Source: Akkermansia muciniphila (lineage in GTDB: Bacteria; Verrucomicrobiota; Verrucomicrobiia; Limisphaerales; JADLHS01). From it: a stretch of 49,586 nucleotides of DNA. This document shows positions 13,143-31,756 of the stretch, in pieces. The stretch covers positions 1-49,586 of the forward strand of contig CAMCWI010000003.1 of assembly GCA_945882065.1 (NCBI GenBank), in the 5' to 3' direction. The notes below the pieces were generated by a model. The model was not told the origin of the DNA. It searched no databases and worked only from the letters and a program-made list of their open reading frames with translations. The position numbers and the translations under genes were made by a program. Numbering within the stretch: position 1 is the stretch's first letter; each line of letters opens with the position of its first letter.

Positions 13143-13819
13143 GCGAGAACGGTTTCCGATTTGACGACTGCGGGCATCGGTGTTGTGCCTGTTTCAGTCT
13201 GGCGTGTGAAGATGCGCGTCATACCATGGAATTCAGGACGGAAGTGCCGCAGCGTGATGCTCTCCAATCGCGCGAGAAATGCGACGTATTCATTGCGCCA
13301 GCGTTTGGCGATGCTCGCCATGACCAATCCCGGAATCGCCACCATCATGCCGGTCTGTGTGGCCACGAGCGCTTCGCTGATGCCCTTGGCGATGATTTCA
13401 GAAGCGGAACTGCCGCCGATGCCAATGGCTTTGAACGTGAGCAACATTCCCAAGACCGTGCCGAGCAATCCGAACAACGGCGCTGAAACCACGAGCACAT
13501 TTAGAAACGCGACGCGGCGATCCAAGTCAGTGACCTGCGAGGCTTCGACTTCGCGGAAGCGGCCTTCGATATCTTTGATCGAATGTATTTCGTCCTGCGT
13601 GTAACGAACCAATTCGCGCACGCTGGCTGGCGCGGTTTCGGGTTTGGCCACCCAGTTGCGCAGAACAACATCAGTCGCCTTGGTCAACCCACGATGATAT
13701 GCCGACATCAGCAATTGCGCCGCGCTCACATACATGACGAGCGACAACAGCACCATGGCCCACATGACCCAGCCGCCGGTCGTCCAGGTGTGCAACATCA
13801 TTTTGAAGATTTCGTTCAT
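13139..13819 (-). CDS. exbB: MotA/TolQ/ExbB proton channel protein
   Basis: APLFGLLGTVLGM and GISEALVATQTG. Confidence 0.92.
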   Translation of the reverse strand: MNEIFKMMLHTWTTGGWVMWAMVLLSLVMYVSAAQLLMSAYHRGLTKATDVVLRNWVAKPETAPASVRELVRYTQDEIHSIKDIEGRFREVEASQVTDLDRRVAFLNVLVVSAPLFGLLGTVLGMLLTFKAIGIGGSSASEIIAKGISEALVATQTGMMVAIPGLVMASIAKRWRNEYVAFLARLESITLRHFRPEFHGMTRIFTRQTETGTTPMPAVVKSETVLA

Positions 13820-13841
13820 AGTTTTTTTGGTGTTGAGGGTT

Positions 13842-15245: not shown

Positions 15246-15268
15246 CGGGAAAAAATGTTAATGGGTCT

Positions 15269-16033
15269 TCAACGTACCGTGGCGGGCAGAGTCACGAAGC
15301 GCGCCGTGCGCTCGTTGCGATAAATTTTGACGACTTCTTGAACTGTAGATGCGATCTCAGGTTTGACAGCCCATTCCCAACCGTTGCTGCCGGGTGTGCC
15401 TGTGCCCGCGAAATCACCGGCTTCGTTCACGAAGTAAGCTGCACCGAGTCCGATATAAATCGTCTGCACGGCGACTTCCTCGCCTTTGGGATTCTTGCGC
15501 TTCTCGTTGAAGAGATTCACGGCGTTGTTGAACTTGTCGAGTTCGCCGAGCAATCCGACCAGCACCTGCATGCGTTCGGCGGCGAGCATCTTTGTGTTCG
15601 CGGGATCAGCGGGCAATTTGGCGAGCAACGGCTTGAGAATGTCTTGAAGCGGCGAAGGCAACTGCGGCACGAACTTTTTCACACGCGCCTCAAAGTCTGT
15701 CGCGAATTGCCGCGCGCCATCCAGGGTCTCGTTCGACTGCTTTTGCAGCGCGGTGGCTTCGGTCATTTCTTTCGCGACCTGCGAGTTGTTCGTGGACACC
15801 TTCGACATCTGGTCGTTGATGGATTTCAACTCGCGTTCGTAGAGAGCAACGGTCTGTTCCAGAGATTCTTTGTCCGCCTGCCAGTCGTTACGCGTCTTGG
15901 AGATCAACTGCCGCGTCTGCACCCACTGCTCCAGTGTCGTGCGCGTCTGCGCCATGACAGGGGCGTCGGCGGCGACCAGTCGCACTCCACTTGTGAGTGC
16001 CAGGAGCGTGACCAAAGAGAAAAGTAACTTCAT
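15269..16033 (-). CDS. DUF3450 family protein (TtpB-like)
   Basis: Signal peptide, coiled coil, AERMQ and IYIGLGAAYFV...W motifs; first gene of a Ttp-type Ton operon. Confidence 0.8.
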   Translation of the reverse strand: MKLLFSLVTLLALTSGVRLVAADAPVMAQTRTTLEQWVQTRQLISKTRNDWQADKESLEQTVALYERELKSINDQMSKVSTNNSQVAKEMTEATALQKQSNETLDGARQFATDFEARVKKFVPQLPSPLQDILKPLLAKLPADPANTKMLAAERMQVLVGLLGELDKFNNAVNLFNEKRKNPKGEEVAVQTIYIGLGAAYFVNEAGDFAGTGTPGSNGWEWAVKPEIASTVQEVVKIYRNERTARFVTLPATVR

Positions 16034-16077
16034 TCATAAGTAAGGTCGTGAAACCGTGTCACGCCTTGATGTCGGCA

Positions 16078-16097
16078 TTGTTACGACTGTGTGACAA
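16078..16097 (-). promoter_or_regulatory. Pho-box-like direct repeat upstream of the Ton operon
   Basis: Minus strand ttGTCACacagtcGTAACaa: two GT(C/A)AC half-sites with 11-bp period, 45 bp upstream of the first ATG. Confidence 0.5.
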
Positions 16098-16682
16098 TCA
16101 ATCTCTGATACGCCACACAGGGAAATGAAACGCGGGTTCTGAGCGACGTAACATCAATGTAACCCCGCTGGCGTAGAGTTGTCGCAGTAGTCGTGTTTCA
16201 TGGCCTCGAGATGAAAGCGATAATCCCTGTGAAAAAGCATCCCTCAATTTCCTTCGTCACACGTGTGACGGAGGCACGGACGGGTCAGGACTTAAAACCG
16301 TGTGCATCCGTGTCCCGTCCGCTCCCCTATTTCGGCAGCGAGCGACTTCGCGGAATGTTGCTAGTGCGTTTTGCCGTGCGGCGAGACTCCTCGCAATTTC
16401 GCTGGCCATGAAAATCAAATCGGACCGGGCTCCGGTGTTTCTTCAACTTGTCGCCTATCGGCAACGATGGCGCGAGCGTTCGAGTCTGTGGAGAGAGTCA
16501 CAGCGATGTCACAGGAATGACATAATTTCGCCATCGTTCCAACGGAGTCTCAAAGAAGTCTGTTTGATGCTGAATGTTTTGGACGAACGATTTCCGCGTT
16601 GAAGTTCAAGAGTTCACGGGCAACTTGTGTTGTCCGAACGCGGGCCGGAGCGGTCGCAAGGCCGCTCCGGTTTTTGTTTGGA

Positions 16683-17102
16683 TCAGGAAGCGACCGGTTT
16701 TTCCGGCGGGGCGATCTTGCTTGAAGGGAAGAATGGTTTTCGGAACGCATCATGGAAGTCGTAGCCACCGCCGAAATCGTCGCGGCTGTCCTTCTCTGTT
16801 TTGCCGAGCAACCCGATCTCCACCATGTTGAAAACGATTTCGCCAAAATCTTCGCAGCGTTTGATGCCCCATTCCTCGAAGACCATCTGGGTCATCGGGC
16901 CAAATTGTGCGAGCGCGTAGTCGCGGATGCCGCCGAGCAATTCCTGCCCCGTGACGTGGCGCATCTCGCCCTTGTTTTCTTTCAGGACAATTTTCTGCGT
17001 GTGATCAAGCGCGTCCTTCACGAAGAGGTAGGCGTCGCGCGGATAGCGCGAGTCCTTGGCGATCACCAGGGCGAGCGTGGTTTCAAAAGTCAGTTCCTGC
17101 AT
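16683..17102 (-). CDS. Minf_1886 family (Verrucomicrobia/Planctomycetes-restricted) protein
   Basis: DSRYPRDAYLFV, RHVTGQELL, QFGPM..V...WGI...EDFGEIVFNMVE.GLL. Confidence 0.85.
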   Translation of the reverse strand: MQELTFETTLALVIAKDSRYPRDAYLFVKDALDHTQKIVLKENKGEMRHVTGQELLGGIRDYALAQFGPMTQMVFEEWGIKRCEDFGEIVFNMVEIGLLGKTEKDSRDDFGGGYDFHDAFRKPFFPSSKIAPPEKPVAS

Positions 17103-17108
17103 AGCAAT

Positions 17109-17240
17109 TCAAGGTGTGGCGCGCTGGACGATCTGCGTGTTCGGATGCGCTGCGCGATAGGATTTCACAGCCCACCCCATCAGCAACATCCCCAGCACGA
17201 GGCAGAGGACGAGTTGTTCCTGTTTGGTCAGCGCGTTCAC
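17109..17240 (-). CDS. 43-aa single-pass membrane protein (not in ORF track)
   Basis: GTG...TGA encoding MNALTKQEQLVLCLVLGMLLMGWAVKSYRAAHPNTQIVQRATP; ends 6 bp before the Minf_1886 gene on the same strand. Confidence 0.6.
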   Translation of the reverse strand: MNALTKQEQLVLCLVLGMLLMGWAVKSYRAAHPNTQIVQRATP

Positions 17241-17345
17241 GATGGAACTTTAGTGGGCGATGCGCCCGACTGCAACAGTGTATGCTCCGATGTATGCTCC
17301 GACGGAATTTCGCTGTCGGCTGGCAGTTTAATTTAGATTTTCATC

Positions 17346-17567
17346 CTACGAATAATTCTCCATCCCCACGCAGGAACAGACCGGGTTGCGGGCGCCGAAG
17401 AAGTTGTCCACGCGGGCGACGGGTGCTTCTCCTTCTCCGCCTTGAGCGGGGAGAGGGCTGGGGAGGTGTCGAAATCTGCCGTAACCCATCCGCCGCTTTG
17501 CCACGTCCTCCGCAGTCGTTCCCTTGAACGCGCGCAGGTCGAGGATGCATTCGTGCGCGACGAGGCC
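17346..17567 (-). pseudogene. gcvP: Displaced, internally deleted copy of the gcvP 3' end
   Basis: [30 protein letters not shown] (17478-17567, matching 26845-26934) and [24 protein letters not shown] (17346-17420, matching 26485-26559). Confidence 0.9.
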
Positions 17568-17634
17568 TCTCCTATCGCAAAGTGTGAACAATTCGTTCTT
17601 CGTCTGAACTGCGGCTTCAGGTAAAAGGAAACCG

Positions 17635-18549
17635 ATGAGCAGCCAACTTCCCGCACCAGCCGGCAGCAACACCTTTGAACGAATCAAACGTGTCAGTGCC
17701 GAAGGCCACGAATTCTGGTCGGCGCGCGATTTGGCCCAGGTGCTGGAATACACCAACTTTCGCAACTTTTTCACCGTCATCGCCAAAGCACGCGAAGCGT
17801 GTGCGAGCAGTGGCCATACGGTTTTCGACCATTTCGTTGAAACCAACGAAATGGTCAATCTTGGATCAGGAGCGCAACGGCCCATCGAAGATTGGAAGCT
17901 CTCTCGCGACGCCTGCTACCTCGTAATTCAGAACGCCGATCCGAGCAAGCCTCTCGTGGCACTTGGGCAAACTTATTTCGCCTTGCAAACGCGGCGTCAG
18001 GAAATGGTGGTCAGGAGTTTGAAGGGGCGCGGCTGTGTCGTCCTCGACCAGCCGCAGCGCTCGGAAAGGAGAAGCGCATGGAGGTTTTCTAACACGCCAC
18101 CCGTTGTCACCCTGCTGCGGCTGGTCTCCAACACAGCCGTATCTCCGTCCGCTGGCCACTCACCTCCACTTCTGGACGCACCCCGGCGTTGTGCAGCCGC
18201 TGGATACGCCATCTTCATGGATCACGGGTATCGCGGGCTTTACGGCGGGCTGGGTATGCGCGACATCCCCGAGCGCAAGCGGCTCAAACCCAGGCAGCAG
18301 GTTCTCGATCACATGGGCAGCACGGAACTAGTGGCCAATCTGTTCCGCGCCACGCAGACCGAGGAAAAGCTGAGGCGCGAAAACGTGCGGAACAAAGATC
18401 ACGCCAACCGGATTCACAACGAAGTGGGCCGCAAAGTCCGCAAGACCATTCACGAACTCGGCGGCACGATGCCGGAGAATCTGCCCGTGGCCGAGAGCAT
18501 CAAGAAAGTCGCGAGCCGGGAGAAGAAGCGGGTTAAAGCTGGTCAATAA
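17635..18549 (+). pseudogene. dinD: DNA damage-inducible protein D, central part replaced by a palindromic element; ORF still open
   Basis: FWSARDL, GSGAQR, IQNADPSK...GQTYFALQTRRQE, GYRGLYGG, LDHMGSTEL.ANLFRATQTEEKL and GGTMPENLP; unrelated sequence at ~18005-18184. Confidence 0.8.
18024..18146. repeat. MITE/REP-like palindromic element (same family as 49439-49544)
   Basis: gcgcggctgtgt...gaccagccgcagc <spacer> gctgcggctggtc...acacagccg nested inverted repeats. Confidence 0.8.
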
Positions 18550-18558
18550 AATAAACCA

Positions 18559-18816
18559 ATGGCTATACATGCACCCAAAGATGAGATGCTCCATGCGGTG
18601 GAACTGGCTCTGGCCTGCAAGTGGGACGCCGCGCATCAACTAGTCCAGCACTACGAAGAGGACCCAACAGCCGCGTGGATTCACGCCGTGTTGCACAAGA
18701 TCGAAGGCGATCTGGGGAACGCCCGATATTGGTATCATCGCGCAAACCGGATGGATCATGTCGCCGACGAACCGCGTGCGGAACTCGCCGCCATTCAAGC
18801 CGAGCTCAATTACTAG
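18559..18816 (+). CDS. Conserved small helical hypothetical protein
   Basis: WDAAHQLVQ...AWIHAVLHKIEGDLGNARYWY pattern of a widespread uncharacterised family; starts 9 bp after dinD. Confidence 0.75.
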   Translation: MAIHAPKDEMLHAVELALACKWDAAHQLVQHYEEDPTAAWIHAVLHKIEGDLGNARYWYHRANRMDHVADEPRAELAAIQAELNY

Positions 18817-18900
18817 GTTTTGCGAATCGGACTGGTTTCAAAGTCGCACGCAGGAGAAACCCCTTGTCCAACCAAGGTAAAGCCGGACCATTCCATCTGA

Positions 18901-20085
18901 TCACGCGGGCGTTTCGGCCAGCGCCAGCTTCTTATCAAACATGACGGTGTCGCTCATCTTGTGCTTGGACGCGGCGACGCGGCCGGCTGTGTATTTGTCC
19001 AACGCTTGCTGCATCTGGGTTTTGTGATTGGCGTAGTGCAACGCGGTTTCCGGAGCGATATCACCTGCGAGCACGGCGTTGATCAGAGATTGTTCGAAGC
19101 TATGCCAACCCCAAGGTGTGACACTGCTTTCGATGATCTCGTGTAGGTTGTGCTTCTCTGATTCCCCGGAGATGATGACTTCACGCGAGCGCATGTTGTT
19201 ACCCATGACTTCCGTGACCAACTGTAGTCCGCCATCCAGCCTTGGAACAAGCCGTTGACTCACCACCCAGCGCAACGCATCCGCCAACCGCTGCCGCATG
19301 AGGGATTCCTCGCCTTTGTCAAACATGCCCAAGACGCGGTTGATCGTCTGGCTTGCGTTGATCGTATGGAGAGACGAGAAAACGAGATGCCCCGTCTCGC
19401 CAGCGGTGATGGCGACCTCCATGGTTTCCCGATCCCGGATTTCGCCGACCATGATCGTGTGAGGTGACTGACGCAATGCCGCCTTGAGGCCCACCGCAGG
19501 ATCGAAGTAATCCTTGCCGTATTCGCGCTGACTGAACGTCGCTTGAATCGGTTCATGCAGATATTCGATGGGGTCTTCGAGGCTGATGACATGGATATCC
19601 TGGTTGAGATTGATTTCGTTCAAGATCGCCGCCAGCGTGGTCGTCTTGCCTGTGCCGGTGGCGCCGGTGATAAAAACCAATCCGGCGTTTTCGTGGATGA
19701 TCTGGTCAAAGACCGGGGGAACTTTGAGATCCTGAAGTTGCGGGATCGTGTTGGAGAGCTTACGCATGACGATCGCGCGATGTCCCCCTCGAGAATAGAT
19801 ATTGACCCGGAATCGCGCTACACCCGGCACGGAATAACTGCAATCGCACGAGCCGTTCTTGCGGTAGTTTTCCGCGACCAACTCATTGCCATCAATCAGG
19901 ACGTCAGACAATTGCGCCGTCATCTCGGTGGTGACGGGTTCAGCGATCAAATCACTGGTGTATGAACGCAATTTCCCATAACAGGACATCTGCGGCACCC
20001 GGCCGGGAATAAACAACAAGTCGGAAATGCCATTTTCACACAGGATCATGGCTATCAGCAGATCATTGAAACGCTTTTTATTCAT
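18901..20085 (-). CDS. pilT: PilT/PilU family type IV pilus retraction ATPase
   Basis: RFRVNIY, Walker A GATGTGKTT, LEDPIEYLH, ALRQSP..IMVGEIRD, ETGHLVFSSLHT and VVSQRLVP. Confidence 0.9.
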   Translation of the reverse strand: MNKKRFNDLLIAMILCENGISDLLFIPGRVPQMSCYGKLRSYTSDLIAEPVTTEMTAQLSDVLIDGNELVAENYRKNGSCDCSYSVPGVARFRVNIYSRGGHRAIVMRKLSNTIPQLQDLKVPPVFDQIIHENAGLVFITGATGTGKTTTLAAILNEINLNQDIHVISLEDPIEYLHEPIQATFSQREYGKDYFDPAVGLKAALRQSPHTIMVGEIRDRETMEVAITAGETGHLVFSSLHTINASQTINRVLGMFDKGEESLMRQRLADALRWVVSQRLVPRLDGGLQLVTEVMGNNMRSREVIISGESEKHNLHEIIESSVTPWGWHSFEQSLINAVLAGDIAPETALHYANHKTQMQQALDKYTAGRVAASKHKMSDTVMFDKKLALAETPA

Positions 20086-20244
20086 AAAAACATCTATCGG
20101 GGGGCCATTTAGCAATTTCCGTGACATTACAGAGCCGGTGTTTGAGTTGGCGGTTACCCATTCAAGACACGGGAAACTCTGGCGTTATGATACGAAGAGG
20201 CACAGAGGTGAACTGTGAAACAAACGAACGGTGCGCCGGCTATG

Positions 20245-20347
20245 CGCCCTCTCCTCATTCGGCGAGGAAAGGGCAGGGGGGAGGAGTCGTGTGCCTTTGG
20301 AATTAAAGCCCCTCACGTCGTTCGTCTCCCCGTTTTAGCGGGGAGAA
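20245..20347. repeat. REP-like hairpin cluster (ctctcccc..ggggagag family)
   Basis: ccctctcctc..gaggaaaggg and tctccccg..cggggaga hairpins; resembles the filler at 17421-17477. Confidence 0.5.
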
Positions 20348-20408
20348 GCGCGCAAGCATTTGGTTCTTCACAGAAGTTCTCTGTTCCCCTAAAGTCTTGA
20401 CTAGAATC

Positions 20409-22694
20409 ATGAAGTCAAAGGAATCTCCGAACGAGCCGGGCCGTCTCGCCGCGCTCGATCGCTATGCGGTGCTGGACACGCCGGCGGAAGTAGAGTTTGA
20501 TGATTTTACGAAGCTCGCCTCGCAGATTTGCCAGACGCCCATCGCGCTGATTTCGCTGCTGGATGAGCGGCGGCAGTGGTTCAAGAGCAAGGTGGGCCTC
20601 GAGGTCGCTGAGACGCCCCGGAATCTCTCCTTTTGCCAGCACACCATCCAGGGGTCGGAGCTGCTCGAAATCCCCGATGCCCGGCAGGACGAACGTTTTC
20701 GCGACAATCCGCTAGTGACCGGGGAGCCCCGCATCCGCTTCTACGCAGGGGCGCTCCTCACCACCCCGGACGGCTATAACCTCGGAACGCTCTGCGTCAT
20801 TGATCGCGTGCCTCGCGATCTCACAACCGAACAGCGAGACGGGCTCAATCGACTGGCCCGTCAGGTGATGACGCAACTGGAATTGCGGCGGTCCCGAGAG
20901 GAATTCCGTCAGGAGTTGGCGGCGCGGCAGGCGGCGGAGGGACGACTGCGGCGTGCCAGCGACTTACTCTCGGCTGTGGGCCAGCTGCAAGCGGGTTATA
21001 TCAACAAGGTCAAGATAGACTCGGCGGAAACTTTCGACGCCCTTCTGAAGCTGATATTGAGCTTTACGAACAGTGAATACGGTTTTGTGGCTGAAGTGCT
21101 GCGTGATGGCCAAGGCCGACCCTACCTCAAGACCCATGCGATTACGAACATCGCCTGGAACGAGGAGATGCGGGCTTTTTACGAAAAGCACAAAGCCGCG
21201 GGCTTGGAATTCCATAACCTCAAGACCCTGTTCGGCGCCGCCCTCACTACGGGTGAAACGGTCATCGCCAACGCGCCGGACACCGACCCCCGCGGGGGAG
21301 GTCTGCCGCCGGGCCATCCGCCGATGAACTCTTTTCTCGGGGTGCCCATCAAGCACGGCGGCGAACTGATCGCCATGGTGGGCGTGTCCAACCGGCCGGG
21401 CGGCTACGATGAGACGCTGGTCGAGGAAATCGACCCGCTCCTGTCCACCTATTCCACCATCATCAGGGGCTTCCAGTTAGCGAAGCAGCAACGCGCCGAC
21501 CAGCAGCGGATTTTGGCGTTGAATGAGGACTTGGAAGCCCGCGCCGGCGAACTGGCGAAGGCGCAGCAAGAGAAAGACCGCGCGGAGCGCGAGCGTTTGG
21601 AAGCCCTGCAGGAGCATTCGGCCGGTCTGGAGCGGCGGGTCGCCGAACGCACGGTAGAACTGGAGCGAACCCGCCGGCAGTTTGAGGACCTGTTTGAGTT
21701 CGCGCCGGACGCGTTGGTGATGATGGATCAGGCGGGGAGAATCAAACTGATCAACTCTCAGGCCGAGCAGCTGTTCGGTTGGACCCGTGCGGAATTAGTG
21801 GGCCAGGCGGTGGATATCTTGATGCCGAGCCCTCTGCGGGCCGGTTATCTCACCCAGCGCAACCGTTTTCTCCAGGCGGCCAAGGCCCGACCGATGGGGT
21901 CGGGTAAAACCAATCTGCTGGGCCTGCGCAAGGATGGGACGGAATTCTCCGTGGAAATCAGCCTCAGCCCGGTGCAAACGGCGGAAGGCACGCTGGTGGC
22001 CGCCGCCGTGCGAGACATCTCCGAACGCAAGCAATTGGAGCAGGAGTTGGCGCGCCTCAGTTCCCATGAGCAGGAACGCCTCGCCTATGAGTTGCACGAC
22101 CATTTTGGTGCGTATCTGGCCGGCATCGCATTCCGCATCAAAACGCTGTCGGAAGACTTGGGACGGCGCGCCATGCCCGAGGCGGTCATGGCCCAGCAGT
22201 TAGTCCTGCAAGTCAATGCCGGCATTGACCAGGTCCGGAATTTTGCCCGGCTGCTCGTCCCGGTGAATCTGGCCGCGGGGGGGCTCGCGGCGGGATTGTC
22301 CCAGATGGGGAAAGAGATGGAGACGGTTTTTAACATTGTTTGCCGGGTGACAGTGTCGCCGGAGCTGCCGCCGCTGACCCAGGATCAAAGCCTGCAACTT
22401 TACCGCATCGCCCAGGAAGCCGCGCGCAACGCGATCCAGCACGGCAAGGCCCGACAGATCACGCTCTCCATCCGGTGCGACACGGAGAGCCTGATTCAAA
22501 CGGTTACGAACGATGGCAAAACCTGGAATATTGAACATGTTTCCTCTGTGGGACTGGGGCTGCGCATCATGCGGCATCGCGCGGCCACCCTCGGTGGCAC
22601 GCTGACCCTCAAATCCAATCCCGCCGGCCATACGGAGGCCATCTGCCGGGTGCCGCTCGCGACGATCACCCAAAGGGAAAACTCTAGCGCATGA
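20409..22694 (+). CDS. Soluble GAF-GAF-PAS sensor histidine kinase (HisKA_3 type)
   Basis: GAF (ALISLLD.RQWFKS...IRFYAGA), second GAF ([13 protein letters not shown]), PAS (APDALVM...RKDG.EF.VEISLSP), H-box [15 protein letters not shown] and GLGL; no TM segment seen. Confidence 0.92.
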
Positions 22695-23341
22695 AAAAAC
22701 TCCGCATTTTGATCGTGGATGACCACCCGTTTTTTCGGAGCGGTCTGGTGCAATGGTTGAATCACCAGGAGCGGGTGACCAGCTGCGGGGAGGCTGGCTC
22801 GGCGGCAGAGGCCCGGAGTGCCGTGGCTGAATTGCAGCCCGACGTTGTTCTCATGGACCTGCGATTGGGGGATGGCGACGGCTTGAATCTGATCCGGGAG
22901 CTGTCGTCCGAATATCCGCAGATGCGATTTTTAGCGCTGTCCCAGTTTGATGAAGACTTATACGCCCACCGCGCCATGCAGGCTGGCGCCCGGGGTTACC
23001 TGATGAAATCCGAGGCCACCGAAACGGTTCTGGGGGCAATTGAAACGGTGGTACAAGGGGGCATTCATCTCAGCCCGCAGATGGCGGCCAAGCTGCTCCA
23101 AAACATCTTCCCGGATCCGTGCTCCAAAACGGTAAATCTGGCCAAGTTATCCGACCGGGAATTTCAGGTGTTTCAACTGTTGGGCTGCGGCCGGAGCACA
23201 CTCCAGATCTCGGGGCATTTGAAGCTCAGCCCCAAGACGGTTGAGACCTATCGTGAGCATCTCAAAAAAAAGCTGAATCTGCCGGATGGACCGGCGTTGT
23301 TACGTGCCGCGACGATTTGGACAGAATCCGGCACATTGTAG
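22691..23341 (+). CDS. NarL/FixJ family response regulator
   Basis: [20 protein letters not shown] and Lux[13 protein letters not shown]...SPKTVETYR; ATGA overlap with the kinase. Confidence 0.95.
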
Positions 23342-23470
23342 AGTAGCCAACCCACTGCCCGTACCGCGCCCGATGGCGGCATTGAGCCCGGCTGGGCTTG
23401 CCGCAAAAAAATCCTCCGGCCCGAGATCCCTGCCTGTGTGCCATCGTGTTCCGCCCCTGTGGCAGCCGGT

Positions 23471-23510
23471 GTAAGGGTAACCTTTACTCCGAATAGTGGT
23501 GTTCACCTGA
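23471..23510 (+). promoter_or_regulatory. Putative response-regulator binding sites upstream of the PAS protein gene
   Basis: Near-perfect 17-bp palindrome gtaagggtaacctttac (7 of 8 pairs) followed by a weaker one, tagtggtgttcacctga. Confidence 0.35.
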
Positions 23511-23717
23511 TGGCGCGCCGTGCCCCTCTCTGCAACTATAAGCCTCGGTAAATAACGGCGTATGAACCATGATCTATAATTTCACTCTGTACCCTTTGAC
23601 CACCCTGCTGGGTACGCCACCTCTCGTCACGGCGCTCTGCCCGGCAAGCGCTTTGTGCGTGAGAATGTTTCCGCGTGTGGCTTTTATTTTCTGCTCTCTC
23701 TTATGTCTATCCCTGTC

Positions 23718-24749
23718 ATGAAACCTCGCTTATCTCTTATTCTGCTCGGCTTTTTGCTGGCGGCTGCTCCCCTAGGTCGCGCCCAGAGTCTGCTGACCAC
23801 GTTGCCCGTTTTCACCAACGCTTGGGATCTGGCTCATATCCGCGTTTTGGACAAGGACACCAACAGCCTGATTGTTAATGCCAATCAATTGTATCTGGAA
23901 AATCTGCAGGGCGGCGGCCTTGCATGGGTCACCAACTTGGAGAGCATTTTGGGCAAGACGGTCTATGACTTTTACGCGGTCGCCAAGGCTGATGCCTTGC
24001 ATGCCGAGGAGCAGCAATGCCTCGCCACCGGCTTGACCATAGATAAGCTTATCCAACTCTCCCCGTTCGGGACTCCGGCCTCCTGGCAGCATATGAATTT
24101 GAGCCTGCTGAAGGATGATCAGGGCAGGCCTTATGGCTTTCGTTGGCAGTTTTACCCCGTCCCCGCCCCCGGCCAGACCCACATCCCGGACGCCACCAAT
24201 GTGTGGCAGGCCACCCAGCTGTTCATCAGCGACAAAGATACGAACAGTATCATCATCAATGCGAACAGCAATTACATCGCCTCATTGCAGGGTAAATTCC
24301 CCGAGATCCAATCCGTGACCAACCTGATCGGCCGTGACGACTATTATTTCTACCCGACGGCGGATGCGGATAAATTCCGTGCAGACGACCATCAGGTCAT
24401 GACCACGGGGATCGGCTACCATGCCGTGGAAGCCAACCAGCAGATCGGCGGGCCGGTGACCTATCTCGACGTCACCAAGACGCCGCTGCGGGACGCGCAG
24501 GGGAACGTGTTTGGGGTGCATCTCGAATTCTTCGCCCTGCCGCAACTCAGCTTGCAGCGGGTCGCCAGCGGGGGCGCGGAGCTTTTCTGGCCTGCCGAAC
24601 AAAGCGTTTACCGTGTCCAAGAGTCCGCCTCCGTCAGCGGACCGTGGACGAACTCTATGGCCACGCCCGTCATTTCTGGCGGACAGTTCCGGGCGGCGGT
24701 AACCCCAGCGGGGGGTAACCGGTTTTATCGGTTGATAAAAAATCCGTGA
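23718..24749 (+). CDS. Signal-peptide-bearing tandem PAS (PAS_4-like) protein with C-terminal FYRL domain
   Basis: MKPRLSLILLGFLLAAAPLGRA/Q signal; two homologous repeats (DKDTNS.I.NAN ... IG(K/R)..YDF/YYF ... TPLRD..G.V.GV); ~70-aa tail ending NRFYRLIKNP. Confidence 0.8.
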   Translation: MKPRLSLILLGFLLAAAPLGRAQSLLTTLPVFTNAWDLAHIRVLDKDTNSLIVNANQLYLENLQGGGLAWVTNLESILGKTVYDFYAVAKADALHAEEQQCLATGLTIDKLIQLSPFGTPASWQHMNLSLLKDDQGRPYGFRWQFYPVPAPGQTHIPDATNVWQATQLFISDKDTNSIIINANSNYIASLQGKFPEIQSVTNLIGRDDYYFYPTADADKFRADDHQVMTTGIGYHAVEANQQIGGPVTYLDVTKTPLRDAQGNVFGVHLEFFALPQLSLQRVASGGAELFWPAEQSVYRVQESASVSGPWTNSMATPVISGGQFRAAVTPAGGNRFYRLIKNP

Positions 24750-25010
24750 GAGCCGACCCGAAACACATTTTGAATCGACCATAAAAGTGAAGAACAAACT
24801 GACTCAGATCTTCGGCTGGGTGTTTCCGGTGGTGTTCTTCATCTCCCTTGGCAAGTCTCTCCGCGCAGGTCAATTTGCTGCGGCACGCCGCCGGGCCGTC
24901 AAAACACTAATTTCCTATTAGCACCGGCCGCGTTGCCGTTAGCCGCCCCATTTTTGGGGTGGGAGCATTTGTCGCTGACGGCAAGGACGAACGGCGAGCA
25001 CCCCGCCAAG

Positions 25011-25099
25011 CGCCACTCGCCCGTGCCCACAATGAAATCGCCCAAGTAACGCAGCCGGAGCGGGTGCGCGCCGCACGGGCCAAGGTTTTAACCGTGGAT
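25011..25099 (+). repeat. 89-bp direct repeat, copy 1
   Basis: 87 of 89 positions identical to 26241-26329; internal inverted pair gcccgtgc/gcacgggc. Confidence 0.92.
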
Positions 25100-25182
25100 G
25101 ATTCCGATTCAGCCAGTTCGCCGGGCAAAACACGGTTGCTACAACCTAACGAGTGCTTTACCTTCGGGCCAACAGGTTCGAT

Positions 25183-25404
25183 ATGTCAGACCAAGATATT
25201 CAAAAGCTAGAAAGCCAGTTTCCGGCAATTTCCAGCTCGGCTTTCGCTACCGCGCGTGAACGGGTTTTGAAGTCGGGGCAAAGTGTCTTGCAGTCCGAGA
25301 ACGGCGTTATCTATGAGGTTTTCCCCGATGGCCGGCGCGTGGAAGTGAAACGGATCGATCCGCCCACTCAATTCAAAACCGGGAGCATCTTCACGATCAA
25401 GTGA
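25183..25404 (+). CDS. Putative antitoxin partner of the zeta-like ATPase
   Basis: 73 aa; stop overlaps the GTG of the downstream gene; GQSVL..ENG.IYEVFPDG resembles small genes that accompany COG4185 proteins. Confidence 0.65.
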   Translation: MSDQDIQKLESQFPAISSSAFATARERVLKSGQSVLQSENGVIYEVFPDGRRVEVKRIDPPTQFKTGSIFTIK

Positions 25405-26147
25405 GCGCGGCGATTCCACGGCTGCGCATGTTCGCCGGGCCTAATGGTTCAGGCAAAAGCACCTTAAAAACCTATCTACCCGCATCGTTGCTGGGCGTTT
25501 ACCTGAACCCCGATGAGATCGAACAGGAAATCCGGCAGCAGGGCCTGCTTGATTTTGCTGCGTATGGCGTGAGCACGACTGGCGACGATGTAATCCCATT
25601 TTTCAGCACTTCTGAATTTCTAAAGCAAGCCGGTCTTTCGGATGTCGCCAACCGACTTACCTTTGCCGACGGGCGATTGGATTTTTCACAGGTGGAAGTG
25701 AATTCGTATCTGGCCTCGGTCACCAGCGATTTACTTCGGCAGAAACTTCTCGCTCAGAAACTCTCAGTCACATTTGAAACCGTCATGTCGCATCCCAGCA
25801 AGGTGGACATTCTCATTCAAGCACAGGCGGCGGGCTTTCGGACCTATCTCTATTTCGTGGCCACCGACGACTCCGCCATCAACATTTCGCGCGTGCGCAA
25901 CCGGGTGGCACTGAAAGGGCATAATGTGCCAGAAGATAAGATCGTGACTCGCTACCACCGCTCACTGAATTTGTTGGTTAACGCCATCCGATATACTAAC
26001 CGGGCTTACATCTTCGACAATTCCGGGGACAGCAAAGACGGCAAGCAAACCTGGCTGGCGGAAATCACCGAGGGAAAACAGTTGGAATTGAAGACCGACA
26101 AAATCCCTGCGTGGTTCAAGCGGTCAGTGCTGGATAAAATCTGCTAG
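25401..26147 (+). CDS. Zeta-toxin-like P-loop ATPase/kinase (COG4185 type)
   Basis: MFAGPNGSGKST, LNPDEI, FETVMSH, RVRNRV..GHNVPEDKI..RY.RS and IFDNS. Confidence 0.85.
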   Translation: MSAAIPRLRMFAGPNGSGKSTLKTYLPASLLGVYLNPDEIEQEIRQQGLLDFAAYGVSTTGDDVIPFFSTSEFLKQAGLSDVANRLTFADGRLDFSQVEVNSYLASVTSDLLRQKLLAQKLSVTFETVMSHPSKVDILIQAQAAGFRTYLYFVATDDSAINISRVRNRVALKGHNVPEDKIVTRYHRSLNLLVNAIRYTNRAYIFDNSGDSKDGKQTWLAEITEGKQLELKTDKIPAWFKRSVLDKIC

Positions 26148-26240
26148 CCACTCCGCCCCACCTCGGCTTCTAAGCATTCCAACACCTCGCGCATGAACTT
26201 GGAGTGGATTTTGCCAAGCGGCAACAGCCAGCCCAGCAAC

Positions 26241-26329
26241 CGCCACTCGCCCGTGCCCACAATGAAATCGCCCAAGTAACGCAGCCGGAGCGCGTGCGCG
26301 CCGCACGGGCGAAGGTTTTAACCGTGGAT
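26241..26329 (+). repeat. 89-bp direct repeat, copy 2
   Basis: Offset 1230 bp from copy 1; internal 10-bp perfect inverted pair tcgcccgtgc/gcacgggcga. Confidence 0.92.
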
Positions 26330-26385
26330 CAGAAGCGCTGAACGCGGATTCCATTCAACGCGAAGTCGTGTCTCTGTCTCCAGCG

Positions 26386-26456
26386 TTGCAGCGGCGCTCT
26401 GTGAGCGCTGATATTTCTGCATGGCCTGCAACGGCGGTCGTAGACTGCCGCTACAA
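26386..26456. repeat. Degenerate REP doublet
   Basis: tgcagcggcgctctgtgagcgctg ... cggcggtcgtagactgccgctaca; two hairpins with G(T/C)AG...CTAC ends. Confidence 0.55.
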
Positions 26457-26484
26457 TCCATGTTTCATCTGTGTGGCTCTGTGG

Positions 26485-29334
26485 CTAGGAATAATTCTCC
26501 ATCCCCACGCAGGAGCAAACTGGATTCCGATCTCCAAACACGTTGTCCACCCGAGCTACATGCGGCCAAAACTTGTATTCATGGAGAAACTTCGCGGGGA
26601 ACGCGGCCTGTTCGCGCGTGTAAGGTTTGTTCCAGTTATCCGAGGCAATCATATCCGCAGTATGAGGAGCACCTTTGAGCAAATTGTTCTTAGGATCCAC
26701 TGAACCATTTTCCACGGCGGCCATTTCGGCGTGGATGGAGATCATCGCATCGCAGAAACGGTCGAGTTCGTATTTGGATTCGCTTTCGGTGGGTTCGACC
26801 ATAAGCGTGCCGGCGACGGGCCACGAGAGCGTCGGCGGGTGAAAGCCGTAATCCATCAGCCGCTTCGCCACGTCCTCGGCGGTGACGCTGTGGAACGCGC
26901 GCAGATCGAGGATGCATTCGTGCGCGACGAGGCCGTTGCTGCGGTAGAGCGTCGGGAAATGTTTTTCGAGCCGCTTGGAAATGTAATTCGCGTTGAGGAT
27001 GGCGAACTTCGTCGCTTCGGTCAGCCCGTCCGGGCCCATCATCGCAATATACATCCACGAGACGGTGAGAATGCTCGCGCTGCCCCACGGCGCGGCAGAA
27101 ACCGCCCCGATGGGACTTTCGCCACCGAGATTGATGACGTTGTGGCCGGGCAGAAATTCCACGAGATGTTCCGCCACGCCGATCGGTCCAACGCCCGGTC
27201 CGCCGCCGCCGTGCGGAATACAAAACGTCTTGTGCAGATTCAAATGGCAGACGTCCGCGCCGATGAAGCCGGGGCTGGTGAGGCCGACTTGCGCGTTCAT
27301 GTTCGCGCCGTCCATGTAAACCTGGCCGCCGTTCGCGTGGATGATGTCGCAAATCTCGCGGATGGTTTCCTCGAACACGCCGTGCGTGGACGGATAGGTG
27401 ATCATCAGACACGAGAGATCGGCCTTGTGCGCCTCGGCTTTCGCGCGCAGGTCGGCGACGTCAATGTTGCCGTTGGTGTCGCATGCGACGGCGACGACTT
27501 TCATGCTGGCCATGACGGCGCTGGCGGGATTCGTGCCGTGCGCGGAGGTGGGAATGAGACAAACGTTACGATGCGTGTCGCCGCGCGATTCGTGATAGGC
27601 GCGGATGACGAGCAACCCGGCGTATTCGCCCTGCGAACCGGCGTTGGGCTGGAGGGAAATGCCGGCGAACCCGGTGATCTCCGCGAGCCAGGTTTCAACT
27701 TGCTCAAACATTTTCTGATAGCCGCGCGTTTGTTTGATCGGCGCGAACGGATGAATCTTGGCGAACTCCGGCCACGACACAGGGAACATTTCCGCCGCCG
27801 CGTTGAGCTTCATGGTGCACGAGCCGAGCGGAATCATCGAAGCCGTGAGCGAGAGATCGCGCGATTCGAGCCGCTTGATGTAGCGGAGCATCTCCGTTTC
27901 GCTATGATACGAATTGAAGACCTTGTGTTGAAGGAAGTCGGAGATGCGGTCGCAGGCGTGTTGCGTATTGCGTGTTGCGTGTTCAAGCGCGTCCGCCAAG
28001 GTGAAGTCTGGAGCTTTGTCGTTGTTGAAGACTTGCCAGAGTTCGACGACATCGTTTGCGCTGGTGGCTTCATCGAGCGAGATGCCGATGGCCTTGTCGT
28101 CAATGGCGCGGAGATTGATGCGATGCGCTTCGGCGATCTTCAAGATGTCAGCGGACTTCTTGTCGCCAAGATTGATCTTCAACGTATCAAAGCGCGGCGT
28201 GGTGGCGACTTGGCAACCGAGCCGTTCCAGACCGGTGGCCAGAACTTCGGTCAGCGTGTGAACGCGTTGCGCAATCTGCTTCAATCCTTCCGCACCGTAA
28301 TAGCAGGCATAGAGCGAGGCCATGTTCGCGAGCAGTGCCTGCGCTGTGCAGATGTTGCTGGTGGCCTTCTCGCGGCGGATGTGTTGCTCGCGTGTGCCGA
28401 GGGCGAGGCGCAACGCAGGCTTGCCGCGCGCATCTTTGGAGACGCCGACGATCCGTCCGGGCATCTGGCGTTTGAATTCATCGCGCGTGGAGAAGAACGC
28501 GGCGTGCGGTCCACCGTAACCGAGCGGCACGCCGAAGCGTTGCGCACTGCCAACCGCGATGTCCGCGCCGAATTCACCGGGCGGCTTGATGAGCGTGAGT
28601 GCCAGCAGATCGGTCGCGACCGTGACCATCGCGCCAGCGGCGTGAGCTTTTTCCGTGAAGGGTTCGAAATTATGGATCGCACCGAACGTGTCGGGATATT
28701 GAACGAGCGCACCGAAGACCTGGTCGTTGAACTCGAACTTCTCGTGATTGCCGATGACGGCCTCAATGCCCAGCGCCTTGGCGCGAGCAGAGACGACCTC
28801 GATGGTTTGCGGATGGCAGGCTTCCGAGATGAAGAAAACATTCCGTCCATCTTTCAAGCGTGACGACATCGTCATGGCTTCGGCGGCAGCGGTGGCTTCA
28901 TCTAGCATCGAGGCATTCGAGATGTCCAGCCCGGTCAATTCCGTGGCGAGCGTTTGAAAATTCAGCAGCGCTTCGAGTCGGCCTTGGGAAATTTCCGCTT
29001 GGTAAGGTGTGTATGGCGTGTACCAACCGGGATTCTCCAGCACGTTACGCTGGATGACCGGCGGCGTGATCGTGTCGTAGTAACCCATGCCGATGAACGA
29101 ACGGAAAACCTGATTCTGCGCCGCGATGGATTTCAATTCGCGCAGGGCGTCAAACTCGCTCAACGCGGCGGGAAGGTCGAGCGGTTTGCCAAGACGGATT
29201 TGTTTCGGCACGGCGGCATCGGTCAGCGCGTCGAGCGAAGTGTGGGCGAGGAATTTCAATATCTCCGCCGTCTCAGTTATGTTCGGGCCGATGTGGCGGC
29301 GGACGAATTGATCCGGGTGCGACAAGTTTTTCAT
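26485..29334 (-). CDS. gcvP: Glycine dehydrogenase (decarboxylating), glycine cleavage system P protein
   Basis: [54 protein letters not shown] and GGGGPG; the start may be 29364. Confidence 0.98.
27956..27983. repeat. Four tandem heptamers (gcgtRtt) inside gcvP
   Basis: gcgtgtt gcgtatt gcgtgtt gcgtgtt, read as [10 protein letters not shown] in the GcvP inter-domain linker. Confidence 0.85.
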
Positions 29335-29493
29335 GTTTGATTGCTGCGCGTCTGAAAAAGACATGGAGGGAAGATTAGCGGGCGCGATGGGCGCGGGCAA
29401 AAAGAATCAGAAGTGTTTTTGAGGGGTATGAAAGGAAAAGGCCCTCACTATTGCCTGATTGCCGAGGGCAGGGCGGGTATTTAGGCTTGGGGC

Positions 29494-29910
29494 ATGAGTT
29501 CGTTTGCAGTCAGCATTGAAAAGGAAGCTCAACTTGCCCAGCGCATGACTGTGTTGGGCGTGCGTGAGGCGGATATCGAGGAGTCGTTCGTGCGGTCGGG
29601 CGGACATGGCGGGCAAAACGTGAACAAGGTTTCCACCTGCGTGATGCTCATGCATCGTCCGACGGGTTTGCAGGTGAAATGTCAGACGACGCGGCAGCAG
29701 GGGTTGAATCGTTTCATGGCGCGGCATGTGTTGCTGGACAAGATTGCGGCGCAACGTCAGGCGCAGGTCAAAGCGGAGCGAGATCGTGTGGAGAAGTTGC
29801 GTCGCTCGAAACGCAAACGGTCAAAGGGAGCAAAGGAGCGGATACTCGCAGACAAGTCACGTCACTCGGCGAAGAAGTCTTCCCGACGTGGGAAGTTTTC
29901 TGACGATTAA
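29494..29910 (+). CDS. Stand-alone GGQ peptidyl-tRNA hydrolase domain protein (ArfB/RF-1-like ribosome rescue factor)
   Basis: [34 protein letters not shown] and a highly basic C-terminal tail. Confidence 0.88.
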
Positions 29911-29944
29911 GTTTTGGGACGAGAGCGGGATAGCCGTTCGCCGG

Positions 29945-31756
29945 TCACTTCGTAAATTTTCCAGCCAGCAATTCCGCGATGTCCTCGATCTCAAGGAATC
30001 CGTGCAATTGCCGGATACGCGTGGGATGGCGCATTTTGCGGAGCGCCTTGGCTTCGATCTGGCGGATGCGCTCGCGGGTGACGCGAAATTGTTTCCCGAC
30101 TTCTTCGAGTGTGCGCGCGTAGCCATCACCAATGCCGAAGCGGAGTTCGAGGACTTTACGTTCGCGTTCGTTGAGGCTGGAGAGAACGTCGGTGAGTTTG
30201 TCCTTGAGCAGGGCAAAGCTCGTGATGTCTATCGGGTTCTCGGAGTTTTTATCTTCGATAAAGTCGGCGAGGCTGGTGTCGTCCCCATCGCCGACGGGAG
30301 ATTGGAGGGAGATGGGTTGTTGCGCCATCTTCAGAACTGCGCGAACGCGTTCCACGGGATATGCCATTTCTTCTGAAAGTTCCTCGGCCGTGGGTTCGCG
30401 TCCAAAATCCTGGAGTAATCGTTTCTGGGACCGAATTACCTTGTTGATCACCTCGATCATGTGAACGGGAATGCGGATGGTGCGGGACTGGTCGGCAATG
30501 GCGCGTGTGACGGCCTGACGAATCCACCAGGTGGCGTAGGTGGAAAATTTGTAGCCGCGCTTGTACTCGAATTTCTCAACGGCTTTCATTAGTCCCATGT
30601 TGCCTTCCTGGATGAGGTCGAGGAAGGACATGCCGCGATTGGTGTATCTCTTGGCGATGGAGATGACGAGGCGGAGGTTTGCTTCCACCATTTCAGTCTT
30701 GGCCTGGTTGGCGAGTGCGGTGAAATGATTGATGCTGCGATGAGCTTCGGTGAAATCCTTGGTGGACATGCGGACAAATTCTTCTAGGACTCGAATCTTG
30801 CTTTCTTCGATCTCACTCTCCGATACGTGGCCAGCGGCGTGCGAATGATGTTTGTGTTCTTTTACAAGATGGAGGCTGCACTGGAATTTGTCGTGGATGT
30901 TTTCCGCGACGAGTACCATTTCTTCAATGACTTTGTGTTTGAAGAAGAATTTGCCGAATGACGCCTGAAGTTTGGCGTCGAGTTTTTTGAAAACATTGAC
31001 AGCTCGTGTGCGGGTGTCGCTGTTTTTTGCATCGCGAGCGGCATTGAATTGTTCGTCCACCTGCTGATCCAGATTGCGGACGGTTTTCATCAGCGTGTGG
31101 AGCGATTTCAGATAGCTTTCGCGGCTGTTGATCTTTTGATCCACGACCACGCGGTCGAATCGCTCGCGGGGAGGTTCGGCTGTGAGCTTTTCGGCGAGTG
31201 CGACATGTTCCTTGGCGGTGAATCCGAGGCAGTAAATGATGCGTTGGACTTCCTGTTCCGCGTCTTCGATACGTTTCGAGATTTCCACTTCTTGCTGGCG
31301 CGTGAGCAGGGGGACGAGTCCCATCTGTTTGAGGTACATCCGCACGGGATCATCCAGTAAGTCGAGCCGGTCTTTCTCGTCTTCTTCCTTGTCTAGCTGG
31401 GGGGATTGATCTGCTTCTGCATGGTCAACAATATTAATCTCAAGTCCGCGCAGTTTGATAAACACTTCATCAATGTCGTTCGCAGTGACCACACTGTCCG
31501 GTAGCGCATCGTTGATGTCGGAGTAGGTGAGGTGACCTTGTTCGCGTGACAGACGGATGAGTTCCTTGACCTTCTCAGCGATGTCAGCGGGGGTGGACTG
31601 TGTCAAAGGTGCAATGCGGTGGGAATGATCCTGATCGGCGTGGTGAAGTCTGTTGTCTCCATTGGTGTGAGGGGAATCCGCGATGACGCACGGAGTTCTG
31701 TTGAGCTTTTGCATCTTGGCCTTCGGGACTGATGCACACAAATTGCTCTTACGCAT
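29945..31756 (-). CDS. rpoD: RNA polymerase sigma-70 factor, RpoD-like
   Basis: Region 1.1 ([13 protein letters not shown]), [34 protein letters not shown] and [15 protein letters not shown]; start uncertain (31756 or 31714). Confidence 0.9.

Follow-up and report, generated by a model that had tools for sequence, protein, structure and literature searches.

The question raised by this locus is how a second, displaced copy of the 3' end of gcvP, the gene for glycine dehydrogenase, came to lie at the far border of a 9.6-kb interval downstream of the intact gene, and why the two ends are not alike. The interval (17346-26934) forms part of a stretch of 49,586 nucleotides (hereafter the window) from contig CAMCWI010000003.1 of the metagenome-assembled genome (MAG) of a freshwater, uncultured verrucomicrobial bacterium. 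An earlier note, made from the letters of the window alone (the sequence-only reading), had described the interval as a single integrase-less island that entered gcvP by a Campbell-type event at a 29-bp repeat and brought a replacement 3' end with it. Our comparison with relatives indicates that the observation behind this reading is real but too neatly described, and that the interpretation was partly right and partly wrong. We favour, with a probability of roughly 0.55, an explanation in which the interval represents one local version of a recombination hotspot situated at the gcvP 3' end, founded by an insertion and spread by homologous recombination. This hotspot would be common to an order of freshwater Verrucomicrobiota (Limisphaerales-type MAGs).

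The gcvP gene in use (26485-29400, minus strand) is an intact open frame of 971 amino acids (Pfam GDC-P, E=1.4e-196; GcvP2_C, E=5.4e-53), and its present 3' end is foreign. In an alignment of 22 full-length gcvP genes of relatives (G-numbers denote the relatives' genomes, L-numbers their loci and C-numbers contigs), the gene of the window is 87-98% identical to those of the same-genus genomes G001, G036 and G007 across most of gene positions 1800-2625, and its last ~290 nt are 64-81% identical to the relatives, the sole exception being G014 at 91-94%. Measured against G001 and G036, mismatches rise from about one per 15-20 nt to about one per 3 nt at gene position 2680-2693, which corresponds to window positions ~26708-26721 and marks the switch from native to foreign sequence. 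The foreign end thus delimited by the jump in mismatches and by its low GC content at third codon positions (GC3) comprises the last ~225 nt (26485 to ~26715, minus strand). GC3 is 0.60 in the last 97 codons compared with 0.79-0.85 upstream, in agreement with the A/T-ending codons that had been noticed by eye, and the earlier claim that the gene carries a replacement 3' end is borne out by the same mismatch jump. The 158 nt directly 3' of the stop codon (26327-26484) are 99.4% identical by blastn to G014 (L003), where a fragment of a zeta-like gene and a PAS gene also adjoin gcvP. Probably the tail in use, the adjoining toxin pair and the PAS gene were acquired by exchange or are common with a G014-like lineage. 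The gene is moreover mosaic over its full length: compared with G031, identity reaches 93-97% at positions 1726-2250 and drops to 57-77% in other segments.

The distal copy is the older, native-type tail. It survives as a decayed relic of 305 nt on the minus strand (17346 to ~17650), starting at codon ~797/798 according to local alignment with the relic of G057 and with the active gene, and tblastn recovers from it residues 781-852 and 948-971. Two blocks of the relic can be matched to the active gene. Block 1 (17478-17567, minus strand; codons 823-852) starts with the perfect 29-mer and is 86% identical over 90 nt to 26845-26934, and block 2 (17346-17420, minus strand; codons 948-971 and the stop) is 80% identical over 75 nt to 26485-26559. 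The two copies have the same orientation and close with the same last residues and stop, as the sequence-only reading had it; the displaced copy, however, is not whole as had been supposed, since only 57 nt (17421-17477) stand in the alignment where gcvP has 285 nt, so that 228 nt are missing on balance. The 57 nt recur on contigs C24 and C56 of this genome at 82-87% identity and are therefore a small dispersed repeat. Upstream of the 29-mer the relic is badly decayed and can be traced to ~17650. Differences between the two ends are indeed mostly synonymous, with 15 nt differences changing only 2 of 24 residues in the terminal block and 13 changing 5 of 30 in block 1. The GC3 of the relic's terminal block is 0.88, and, measured against a consensus built from seven relatives whose GC3-rich tails are undisturbed, block 2 scores 95% and block 1 92%, compared with 86% for the active tail; the earlier view of the displaced copy as native in type is accordingly sound. 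In our reading, the relic would be an older leftover and not the other end of the event that brought the present tail. As a separate observation, GC-rich small dispersed repeats are inserted in the gcvP relics of three genomes (at 17421-17477 in the window, ~2239-2334 in L038 and ~12171-12447 in L139), and the relic of G031 contains a dispersed-repeat insert that is in frame, so that an open reading frame (ORF) of 210 amino acids remains.

The 29-bp perfect identity between the copies (26906-26934 in the active gene and 17539-17567 in the relic, both on the minus strand) is real and lies inside the 90-nt block. The same stretch is identical or nearly so in most relatives' gcvP and near-invariant across the family; being conserved coding sequence, it is no evidence of an attachment core or of a crossover. 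A crossover at the repeat, as first proposed, is contradicted by the breakpoint in the active gene, which lies ~200 nt downstream of it. What survives of the proposal that gcvP is an anchor site is the gene's role as a recurrent target, and not the 29-mer as its core.

This recurrence is seen when the sequence after gcvP is compared among relatives. Extra tail pieces were sought with the full protein and its C-terminal 149 residues as queries, relics were mapped by tblastn and blastn, and the count covered 27 gcvP loci that had been found by gcvP homology and that either extend 1 kb or more beyond the gene or carry a relic; loci with less than 1 kb after the gene (G007, G030, G031:C106 and G032:C994) were left out. 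Relics follow gcvP at 13 of the 27 loci (G000, G004, G006, G008, G011, G013, G020, G021, G036, G041, G042, G043 and G045), and the sequence examined held none at the other 14 (G001, G003, G005, G014, G016, G017, G022, G025, G026, G034, G035, G038, G039 and G044). The rate was 11 of 20 loci in the window's own family and 2 of 7 in other families of the order (G020 and G021), but because kin are not independent these counts are descriptive and do not constitute a test. Two further relic loci from other families of the order (G057 and G142) were found via the junction motif discussed below and so do not form an unbiased sample. Nine contigs carry a tail piece without the body of gcvP (G031:C149, G032:C727, G001:C75, G022:C18, G038:C59, G042:C105, G032:C787, G043:C937 and G047:C625), and in G045 three relics stand in a tandem array.

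The relics mostly repeat the pattern of the window in being nearer the consensus than the tail in use of the same genome: identities to the consensus are 95-98% versus 75% in G031, 96% versus 76% in G032, 85-89% versus 80% in G045 and 93% versus 85% in G011. Within each of the genomes G045, G031 and G032, relic and active tail agree at only 73-74%, and the foreign tails of G011, G031 and G045 have many derived T-ending codons in common. Short relics have left ends that scatter from 48 to 204 nt before the end of the gene, with a loose cluster at 106-112 nt (G004, G011 and G001:C75). Tail pieces also occur far from gcvP, directly after a large DUF7133-HEAT gene in two genera (L027 5036-5134 in G001:C75 and L050 6886-7052 in G032:C787), and in G001:C75 a Fic gene and a dinD fragment come after the piece; such pieces may mark a second landing place or a translocated islet.

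Searches were also made further afield. Thousands of short gcvP fragments came up as candidate stand-alone tail proteins and were set aside, being mostly contig-end pieces or ORFs starting at an internal methionine. In IMG/VR, 297 stretches encode relatives of the tail at 54-62% identity; the best 80 of these 297 contigs (L058-L137), many of them 4-8 kb long, all hold whole or contig-cut gcvP, and none a tail-only phage attachment site (attP). They were rejected as a source, having no relation to the window's lineage. Three MAG records (L140, L144 and L155) that are Verrucomicrobiota-like by content are titled 'uncultured Bifidobacterium sp.'.

A common junction connects the more distant loci. 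The relic begins at codon 797 after the same ~45-nt flank, which has no likeness to gcvP, in G045, G041 and G031 (one genus each within the window's family) and, outside that family, in G057 and G142 from two others, making three families in total. G042 has the last dozen bases of this flank, and the relic of the window has the same start codon and a different upstream flank; the codon-797 boundary is found in 7 genomes, with more than one upstream flank. When the class-I flank was sought upstream of the window's relic, the score of 28 was not significant against shuffled sequence (mean 19.4, sd 3.9, max 40). In G045 and G031 the active gene itself turns foreign at gene position ~2379-2389, that is, at codon 797: in 45-nt windows, with the active gene of G032 left out of the comparison, identity to the consensus is 87-100% up to ~2385 and 62-64% in the next window. 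In these two genomes the switch coincides with the relic start, so that the replacement begins exactly where the relic begins. Across genomes the switch from native to foreign lies at ~2389 (G045 and G031), ~2476 (G011), ~2690 (the window), ~2790 (G041) and ~2840 (G004, G006 and G013). At the codon-797 joint the active and relic copies have no common core longer than ~6 nt. In G057 only ~160 nt separate the active stop from the junction, and past the stop codon the copies cease to resemble each other, a point against simple tandem duplication. The junction motif had one exact match among JGI metagenome contigs, with only 483 nt of upstream sequence, and occurred in 2 of 301 genomes of the order, in a sample that had 8 own-family genomes and none of the three in which the motif was first seen. 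That an arbitrary junction recurs in three families, and that G045 and G031 switch at one common point, suggests one founder insertion at codon 797.

The interval is integrase-less, as had been stated, and so are the other intervals scanned downstream of gcvP. No recombinase Pfam domain was found in 16 ORFs of the window or among the interval's 19 six-frame ORFs of 110 amino acids or more. Among 172 called ORFs of the window and 28 loci, there was no integrase, resolvase, large serine recombinase, rve/DDE transposase or Tn7-type Pfam domain, and the same domains were absent (E up to 1e-7) from 150 six-frame stop-to-stop ORFs of at least 110 amino acids in 17 intervals running from gcvP to the relic or downstream of gcvP. 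Some intervals are too small to hold a recombinase (~160 nt in G057; a single type IIG restriction gene in G041), and the ~40 loci examined include no autonomous element with an integrase at the same site. Tyrosine recombinases are present in 36 of 36 family genomes; among the 150 of 352 PF00589 matches listed, none is near gcvP, the nearest being 45 kb and 57 kb away. Nor does the interval fit other element classes. It has no terminal inverted repeats beyond chance (the best inverted match is 12 nt, within the shuffle range) no TnsA, TnsB, TnsC or TniQ domains and no 5-bp target duplication, as a Tn7-like transposon should, and insertion of the Tn7 type leaves the tail of the gene unduplicated; an integron is not indicated, there being no integrase beside gcvP and the repeats between cassettes being gcvP coding sequence; and the interval lacks the recombinase of an integrative element that moves itself. 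A tRNA scan of the window found none, hence no tRNA-type attachment site, and Rfam gave no RNA family between 15000 and 31000.

The arrangement around the relic is supported by assemblies other than the one analysed. The stretch is present in lake, river and freshwater-sediment metagenomes from ten studies, and contigs from four runs of four studies were placed on 13500-31500, one of which runs may be the window's own source. Contigs of X1 cover 16376-17705 and 18036-25040, a contig of X3 covers 16433-18056 and contigs of X4 cover 17538-18056 and 18029-18583, all with few differences, so that the relic and its joins to both neighbours are present in more than one assembly. Misassembly at 17300-17700, which the sequence-only reading had named as the result that would overturn it, is countered by the X1 and X3 contigs that bridge the relic. 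The depth of X1 is even, at ~37, over most bins of the interval. For the right-hand join, none of the contig pieces listed spans 26270-26804, and none carries a joint between the two gcvP tails, although rare forms are invisible in assembled contigs. One X3 contig follows the body of gcvP to 26923, inside the 29-mer, and continues into 59 nt of unrelated sequence; it could derive from a variant or a relative with a different join. The X3 assembly also shows small strain differences, with 12 nt missing at 17279 beside the relic and 27 extra nt after 23697 in the region of the PAS gene.

What lies between the two tails is composite. Nearest the relic is a dinD-like gene (17635-18549, plus strand) with a Bro-N domain, a candidate defence gene (PDC-S13) that exceeds the full-length curated threshold for DinD (NCBIfam PRK11525, 326 bits in two stretches, cut-off 242) and matches PDC-S13 in PADLOC at E=5.8e-96. 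Its 3' ~340 nt (18197-18539) are 93-96% identical to G011, G005, G003 and G043, compared with ~78% for the 5' part, and fragments of the dinD 3' part lie downstream of gcvP in several other genomes (L023, L030, L026, L041, L027, L046, L048 and L035), G034 having two copies; the dinD 3' part looks like a second recurrent recombination anchor. Homologues of dinD in species genomes have gcvP sequence at only 3 of 19 loci, all three from genomes already in the comparison set, so dinD is not bound to gcvP. Next comes a pilT-like ATPase gene (18901-20127, minus strand; T2SSE, E=4e-43; pilT_fam 312 bits, slightly below the cut-off of 319). In G011 and G017, both relatives where it was found, its counterpart (88-89% identical) follows a GFO/IDH/MocA oxidoreductase gene on the downstream side of gcvP; the pilT-like gene is common to relatives and not island cargo. 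Its presence is at odds with the earlier view of the interval as one island. G011 has gcvP followed by cargo that includes dinD and the same toxin pair, and then by the relic, the oxidoreductase gene and pilT, the relic there preceding pilT.

A GAF-GAF-PAS histidine kinase gene (20397-22694, plus strand; Pfam) and a LuxR-type response regulator gene (22691-23341, plus strand; Response_reg and GerE domains) follow; the kinase has no full-length match in 23 same-genus genomes, and the block of kinase and regulator is therefore accessory. The PAS-domain protein gene beyond them (23655-24749, plus strand; PAS_4) is 95% identical to G014 over the 92 residues covered on the G014 contig. The toxin pair, a candidate toxin-antitoxin module of epsilon/zeta type, consists of an 83-aa ORF (25153-25404, plus strand), a candidate antitoxin that overlaps the next gene by 4 nt, and a Zeta-toxin/AAA_33-like kinase gene (25401-26147, plus strand; Zeta_toxin 32.5 bits, cut-off 22.3, over part of the profile only). 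The 83-aa ORF has no family match in PADLOC or NCBIfam and is 88% identical to an ORF that occupies the corresponding place in G011, where the kinase is 84% identical; G014 keeps one copy of the adjacent 101-nt repeat and the first 76 codons of the kinase gene. Two 101-nt direct repeats (24999-25099 and 26229-26329, 94% identical) enclose the pair as a 1230-bp unit (24999-26329), and an X4 contig of depth 3 joins 26240 to 25011 by way of the repeat, which would be expected of a circle or a tandem copy but could also be produced by misassembly at the repeat.

Beyond the relic, the left flank holds a 43-aa ORF (17109-17240, minus strand) and a Minf_1886-family gene (16683-17102, minus strand; 139 aa; TIGR04138 156 bits, cut-off 60). 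A plus-strand ORF of 194 aa fully overlaps the latter (16683-17336); the minus-strand frame is the conserved one, at 78-79% in one match versus 58-61% in two pieces for the plus strand. Relatives carry the Minf_1886 gene elsewhere: G011 and G017 have it 20-25 kb downstream of gcvP, in G016 it is remote, and in G001 the two genes are on separate contigs. An empty site, with gcvP followed directly by the 43-aa and Minf_1886 genes, was what the sequence-only reading had proposed to look for in close genomes; none of these 4 relatives, the ones in which a Minf_1886 gene could be placed, shows it. In G011, G017 and G014 the ExbB/DUF3450 cluster, which lies further left in the window, is found on other contigs. 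From these different placements of the pilT-like gene, the Minf_1886 gene and the ExbB/DUF3450 cluster it follows that the 9.6-kb interval is composite and rearranged, accessory genes standing in it together with a pilT-like gene common with relatives.

At other loci the same position holds other genes, namely a type IIG restriction-methylase (G041), GmrSD (G003), RhuM (G008 and G036), KilA-N (G034 and G022:C18), Fic (G001:C75), a RelA/SpoT-like protein with a ParA-like ATPase (G005), DUF559 with PDC-S31 (G039), a ResIII helicase (G031) and, in several genomes, dinD. PADLOC matches were to PDC-S13, the type IIG restriction-methylase and PDC-S31. With a fixed position beside a core gene, cargo that is different at nearly every locus and an enrichment of defence genes, the site has the features of a defence-island hotspot. 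A pair of DuOB and DUF488 genes was seen between gcvP and the relic in two families (L031 11550-13487 in G020 and L037 871-2640 in G042).

How might such a site have arisen? In the explanation that we favour, a founder insertion would have cut gcvP at codon ~797 and supplied a lower-GC3 substitute tail, leaving the original tail downstream as a relic. The resulting two-tail structure would then have spread between lineages, reshuffled by recA-type homologous recombination within the 3' half of gcvP, which is well conserved; subsequent exchange or conversion might have shifted the switch between native and foreign sequence, while defence-type cargo would have turned over around the tails and deletions trimmed the relics. 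Several points weigh against this. The relics of G041 and G008 are not nearer the consensus than their active tails, and the explanation gives no account of how the pilT-like gene came to lie between the tails. The foreign part in G045 and G031 starts at the very edge of the duplicated segment, an unlikely site for a homologous crossover unless the founder state has been kept, and a common cut at codon 797 with at least two upstream flanks is also what a site-specific recombinase should leave. An integrase-bearing relative could have been missed, the search having covered species-representative MAGs only; mobile elements are often absent from bins. A nearby integrase might also sit among the other 202 of the 352 PF00589 matches in the family. 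Among the options offered earlier for the missing recombinase (lost, acting in trans, or never needed in a homology-driven event), the homology-driven one fits best, and action in trans keeps some plausibility.

Site-specific integration by a trans-acting recombinase is a possible, if distinctly less probable, alternative. The islets would then be cis-mobilizable remnants of integrative elements with a target in gcvP close to codon 797, and possibly another ~110 nt before the stop, accreted in tandem as at tRNA genes or ssrA, with the integrase elsewhere or lost. Besides the boundary common to 7 genomes and the foreign tails of G045 and G031 that begin at it, the derived T-ending codons common to the tails of G011, G031 and G045 would suit a single element family; the array of three relics in G045 and the loose 106-112 nt cluster of short relics would suit accretion, an established route for integrase-less cis-mobilizable elements (CIMEs) according to the accessible text of PMC5704250. 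Yet no interval scanned holds an integrase, none of the 150 PF00589 matches listed is near gcvP, the codon-797 joint lacks a core of more than ~6 nt, the left ends of short relics are scattered and the junction motif is rare. The single 9.6-kb island, entering by one Campbell-type event at the 29-bp repeat and pushing the old tail to 17346-17567, agrees with two co-oriented tails bracketing the interval, the active one foreign and the distal one native in type. We regard it as improbable: the breakpoint in the active gene is at ~26715 and not at 26906-26934, the 29-mer is conserved in most relatives, the relic extends past the proposed core to codon ~797, and the pilT-like gene sits inside the interval, whereas in G011 dinD and the toxin pair lie between gcvP and the relic and pilT lies outside.

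Two other explanations fare worse still. Duplication of the gcvP 3' end on the spot, followed by divergence and involving no foreign DNA, would account for relics only ~20-160 nt after the active stop in G004, G043 and G057, but is very unlikely given that in G057 the downstream sequence is not duplicated and that active tails have lower GC3 and are related across genera, the relics being of the consensus type. Least credible is a chimeric contig joined through repeated gcvP sequence or dispersed repeats; the genome is a MAG of 348 contigs, 89.7% complete, and its DUF3450/ExbB left flank lies on other contigs in relatives, but the independent contigs from different studies and the even depth of X1 speak against it.

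A bolder extension of homology-driven spread, which we offer tentatively and consider rather doubtful, is that duplicated gcvP tails act as portable homology arms for the recombinase-free, recA-driven movement of small defence cassettes between genera. Recombination between active tail and relic would loop out a circle with the cargo and a tail fragment from codon 797, and the circle could re-enter any gcvP by a single homologous crossover. If true, this would account at once for the conserved junction, the missing integrases, the relic arrays and the mosaic gcvP across an order of Verrucomicrobiota.

Replacement of the 3' end of a housekeeping gene by incoming DNA is a textbook phenomenon for e14 and phage 21 in icd and is usually tied to an integrase. 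Our search of the full-text literature found no report of gcvP as an integration site with 3' restoration; the accessible parts of other reports describe a disruptive island insertion in gcvP of Pseudomonas aeruginosa and a plasticity region beside gcvP in Photorhabdus and Xenorhabdus. In Escherichia coli, according to the accessible text of PMC13626634, e14 or phage 21 brings an icd 3' end with synonymous differences, the displaced icdC pseudogene remains at the far border, and e14 has its own integrase and excises on SOS induction. The gcvP locus resembles this case in that the 3' end of a housekeeping gene has been replaced with mainly synonymous differences and a displaced C-terminal fragment is kept; direct repeats of the gcvP 3' end stand at both borders and the target is intact. 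It differs in having no recombinase in cis, a distal repeat that is deleted and decayed, and composite DNA between the copies. An e14-like footprint thus recurs at gcvP in many uncultured freshwater Verrucomicrobiota, with no recombinase in cis and beside changing defence-type genes. If the process is homology-driven, defence cassettes could use the ends of conserved genes as landing pads in lineages poor in classical mobile elements, and serial relics of the gcvP tail would provide a simple metagenome marker for such hotspots.

The integrase-less CIMEs left by streptococcal integrative and conjugative or mobilizable elements offer a second comparison: in the accessible text of PMC5704250 they are bounded by repeats of the target's 3' end and stand in tandem with the newest next to the target gene, and the Dehalococcoides islands at ssrA are a related case, as far as the accessible text of PMC3146451 describes them. 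The gcvP islets are likewise integrase-less in the intervals scanned, bordered by gcvP 3'-end repeats and stacked in tandem. CIMEs and ssrA islands, however, have known cognate integrases and short, precise attachment repeats, whereas at gcvP the repeats are up to 525 nt of coding sequence, the ends are ragged and no cognate integrase was found. A third parallel is with defence hotspots, given the fixed position by a conserved gene and the defence-type cargo that differs by genome (type IIG, GmrSD, dinD/PDC-S13, RhuM, KilA-N, Fic and zeta-like genes). Integrase-poor hotspots of this kind lie between core genes in E. coli and P. aeruginosa, and we know of no description of serial relics of the flanking gene's 3' end in them. 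Finally, at rhs and cdiA incoming DNA brings a new 3' end together with cargo, and older 3' ends accumulate downstream as orphan C-terminal arrays. In the same way gcvP gains a new 3' end and cargo and keeps old ends downstream; but where the variable end of rhs and cdiA is a toxin tip under diversifying selection, that of gcvP is the end of a metabolic enzyme, and its variation is mainly synonymous.

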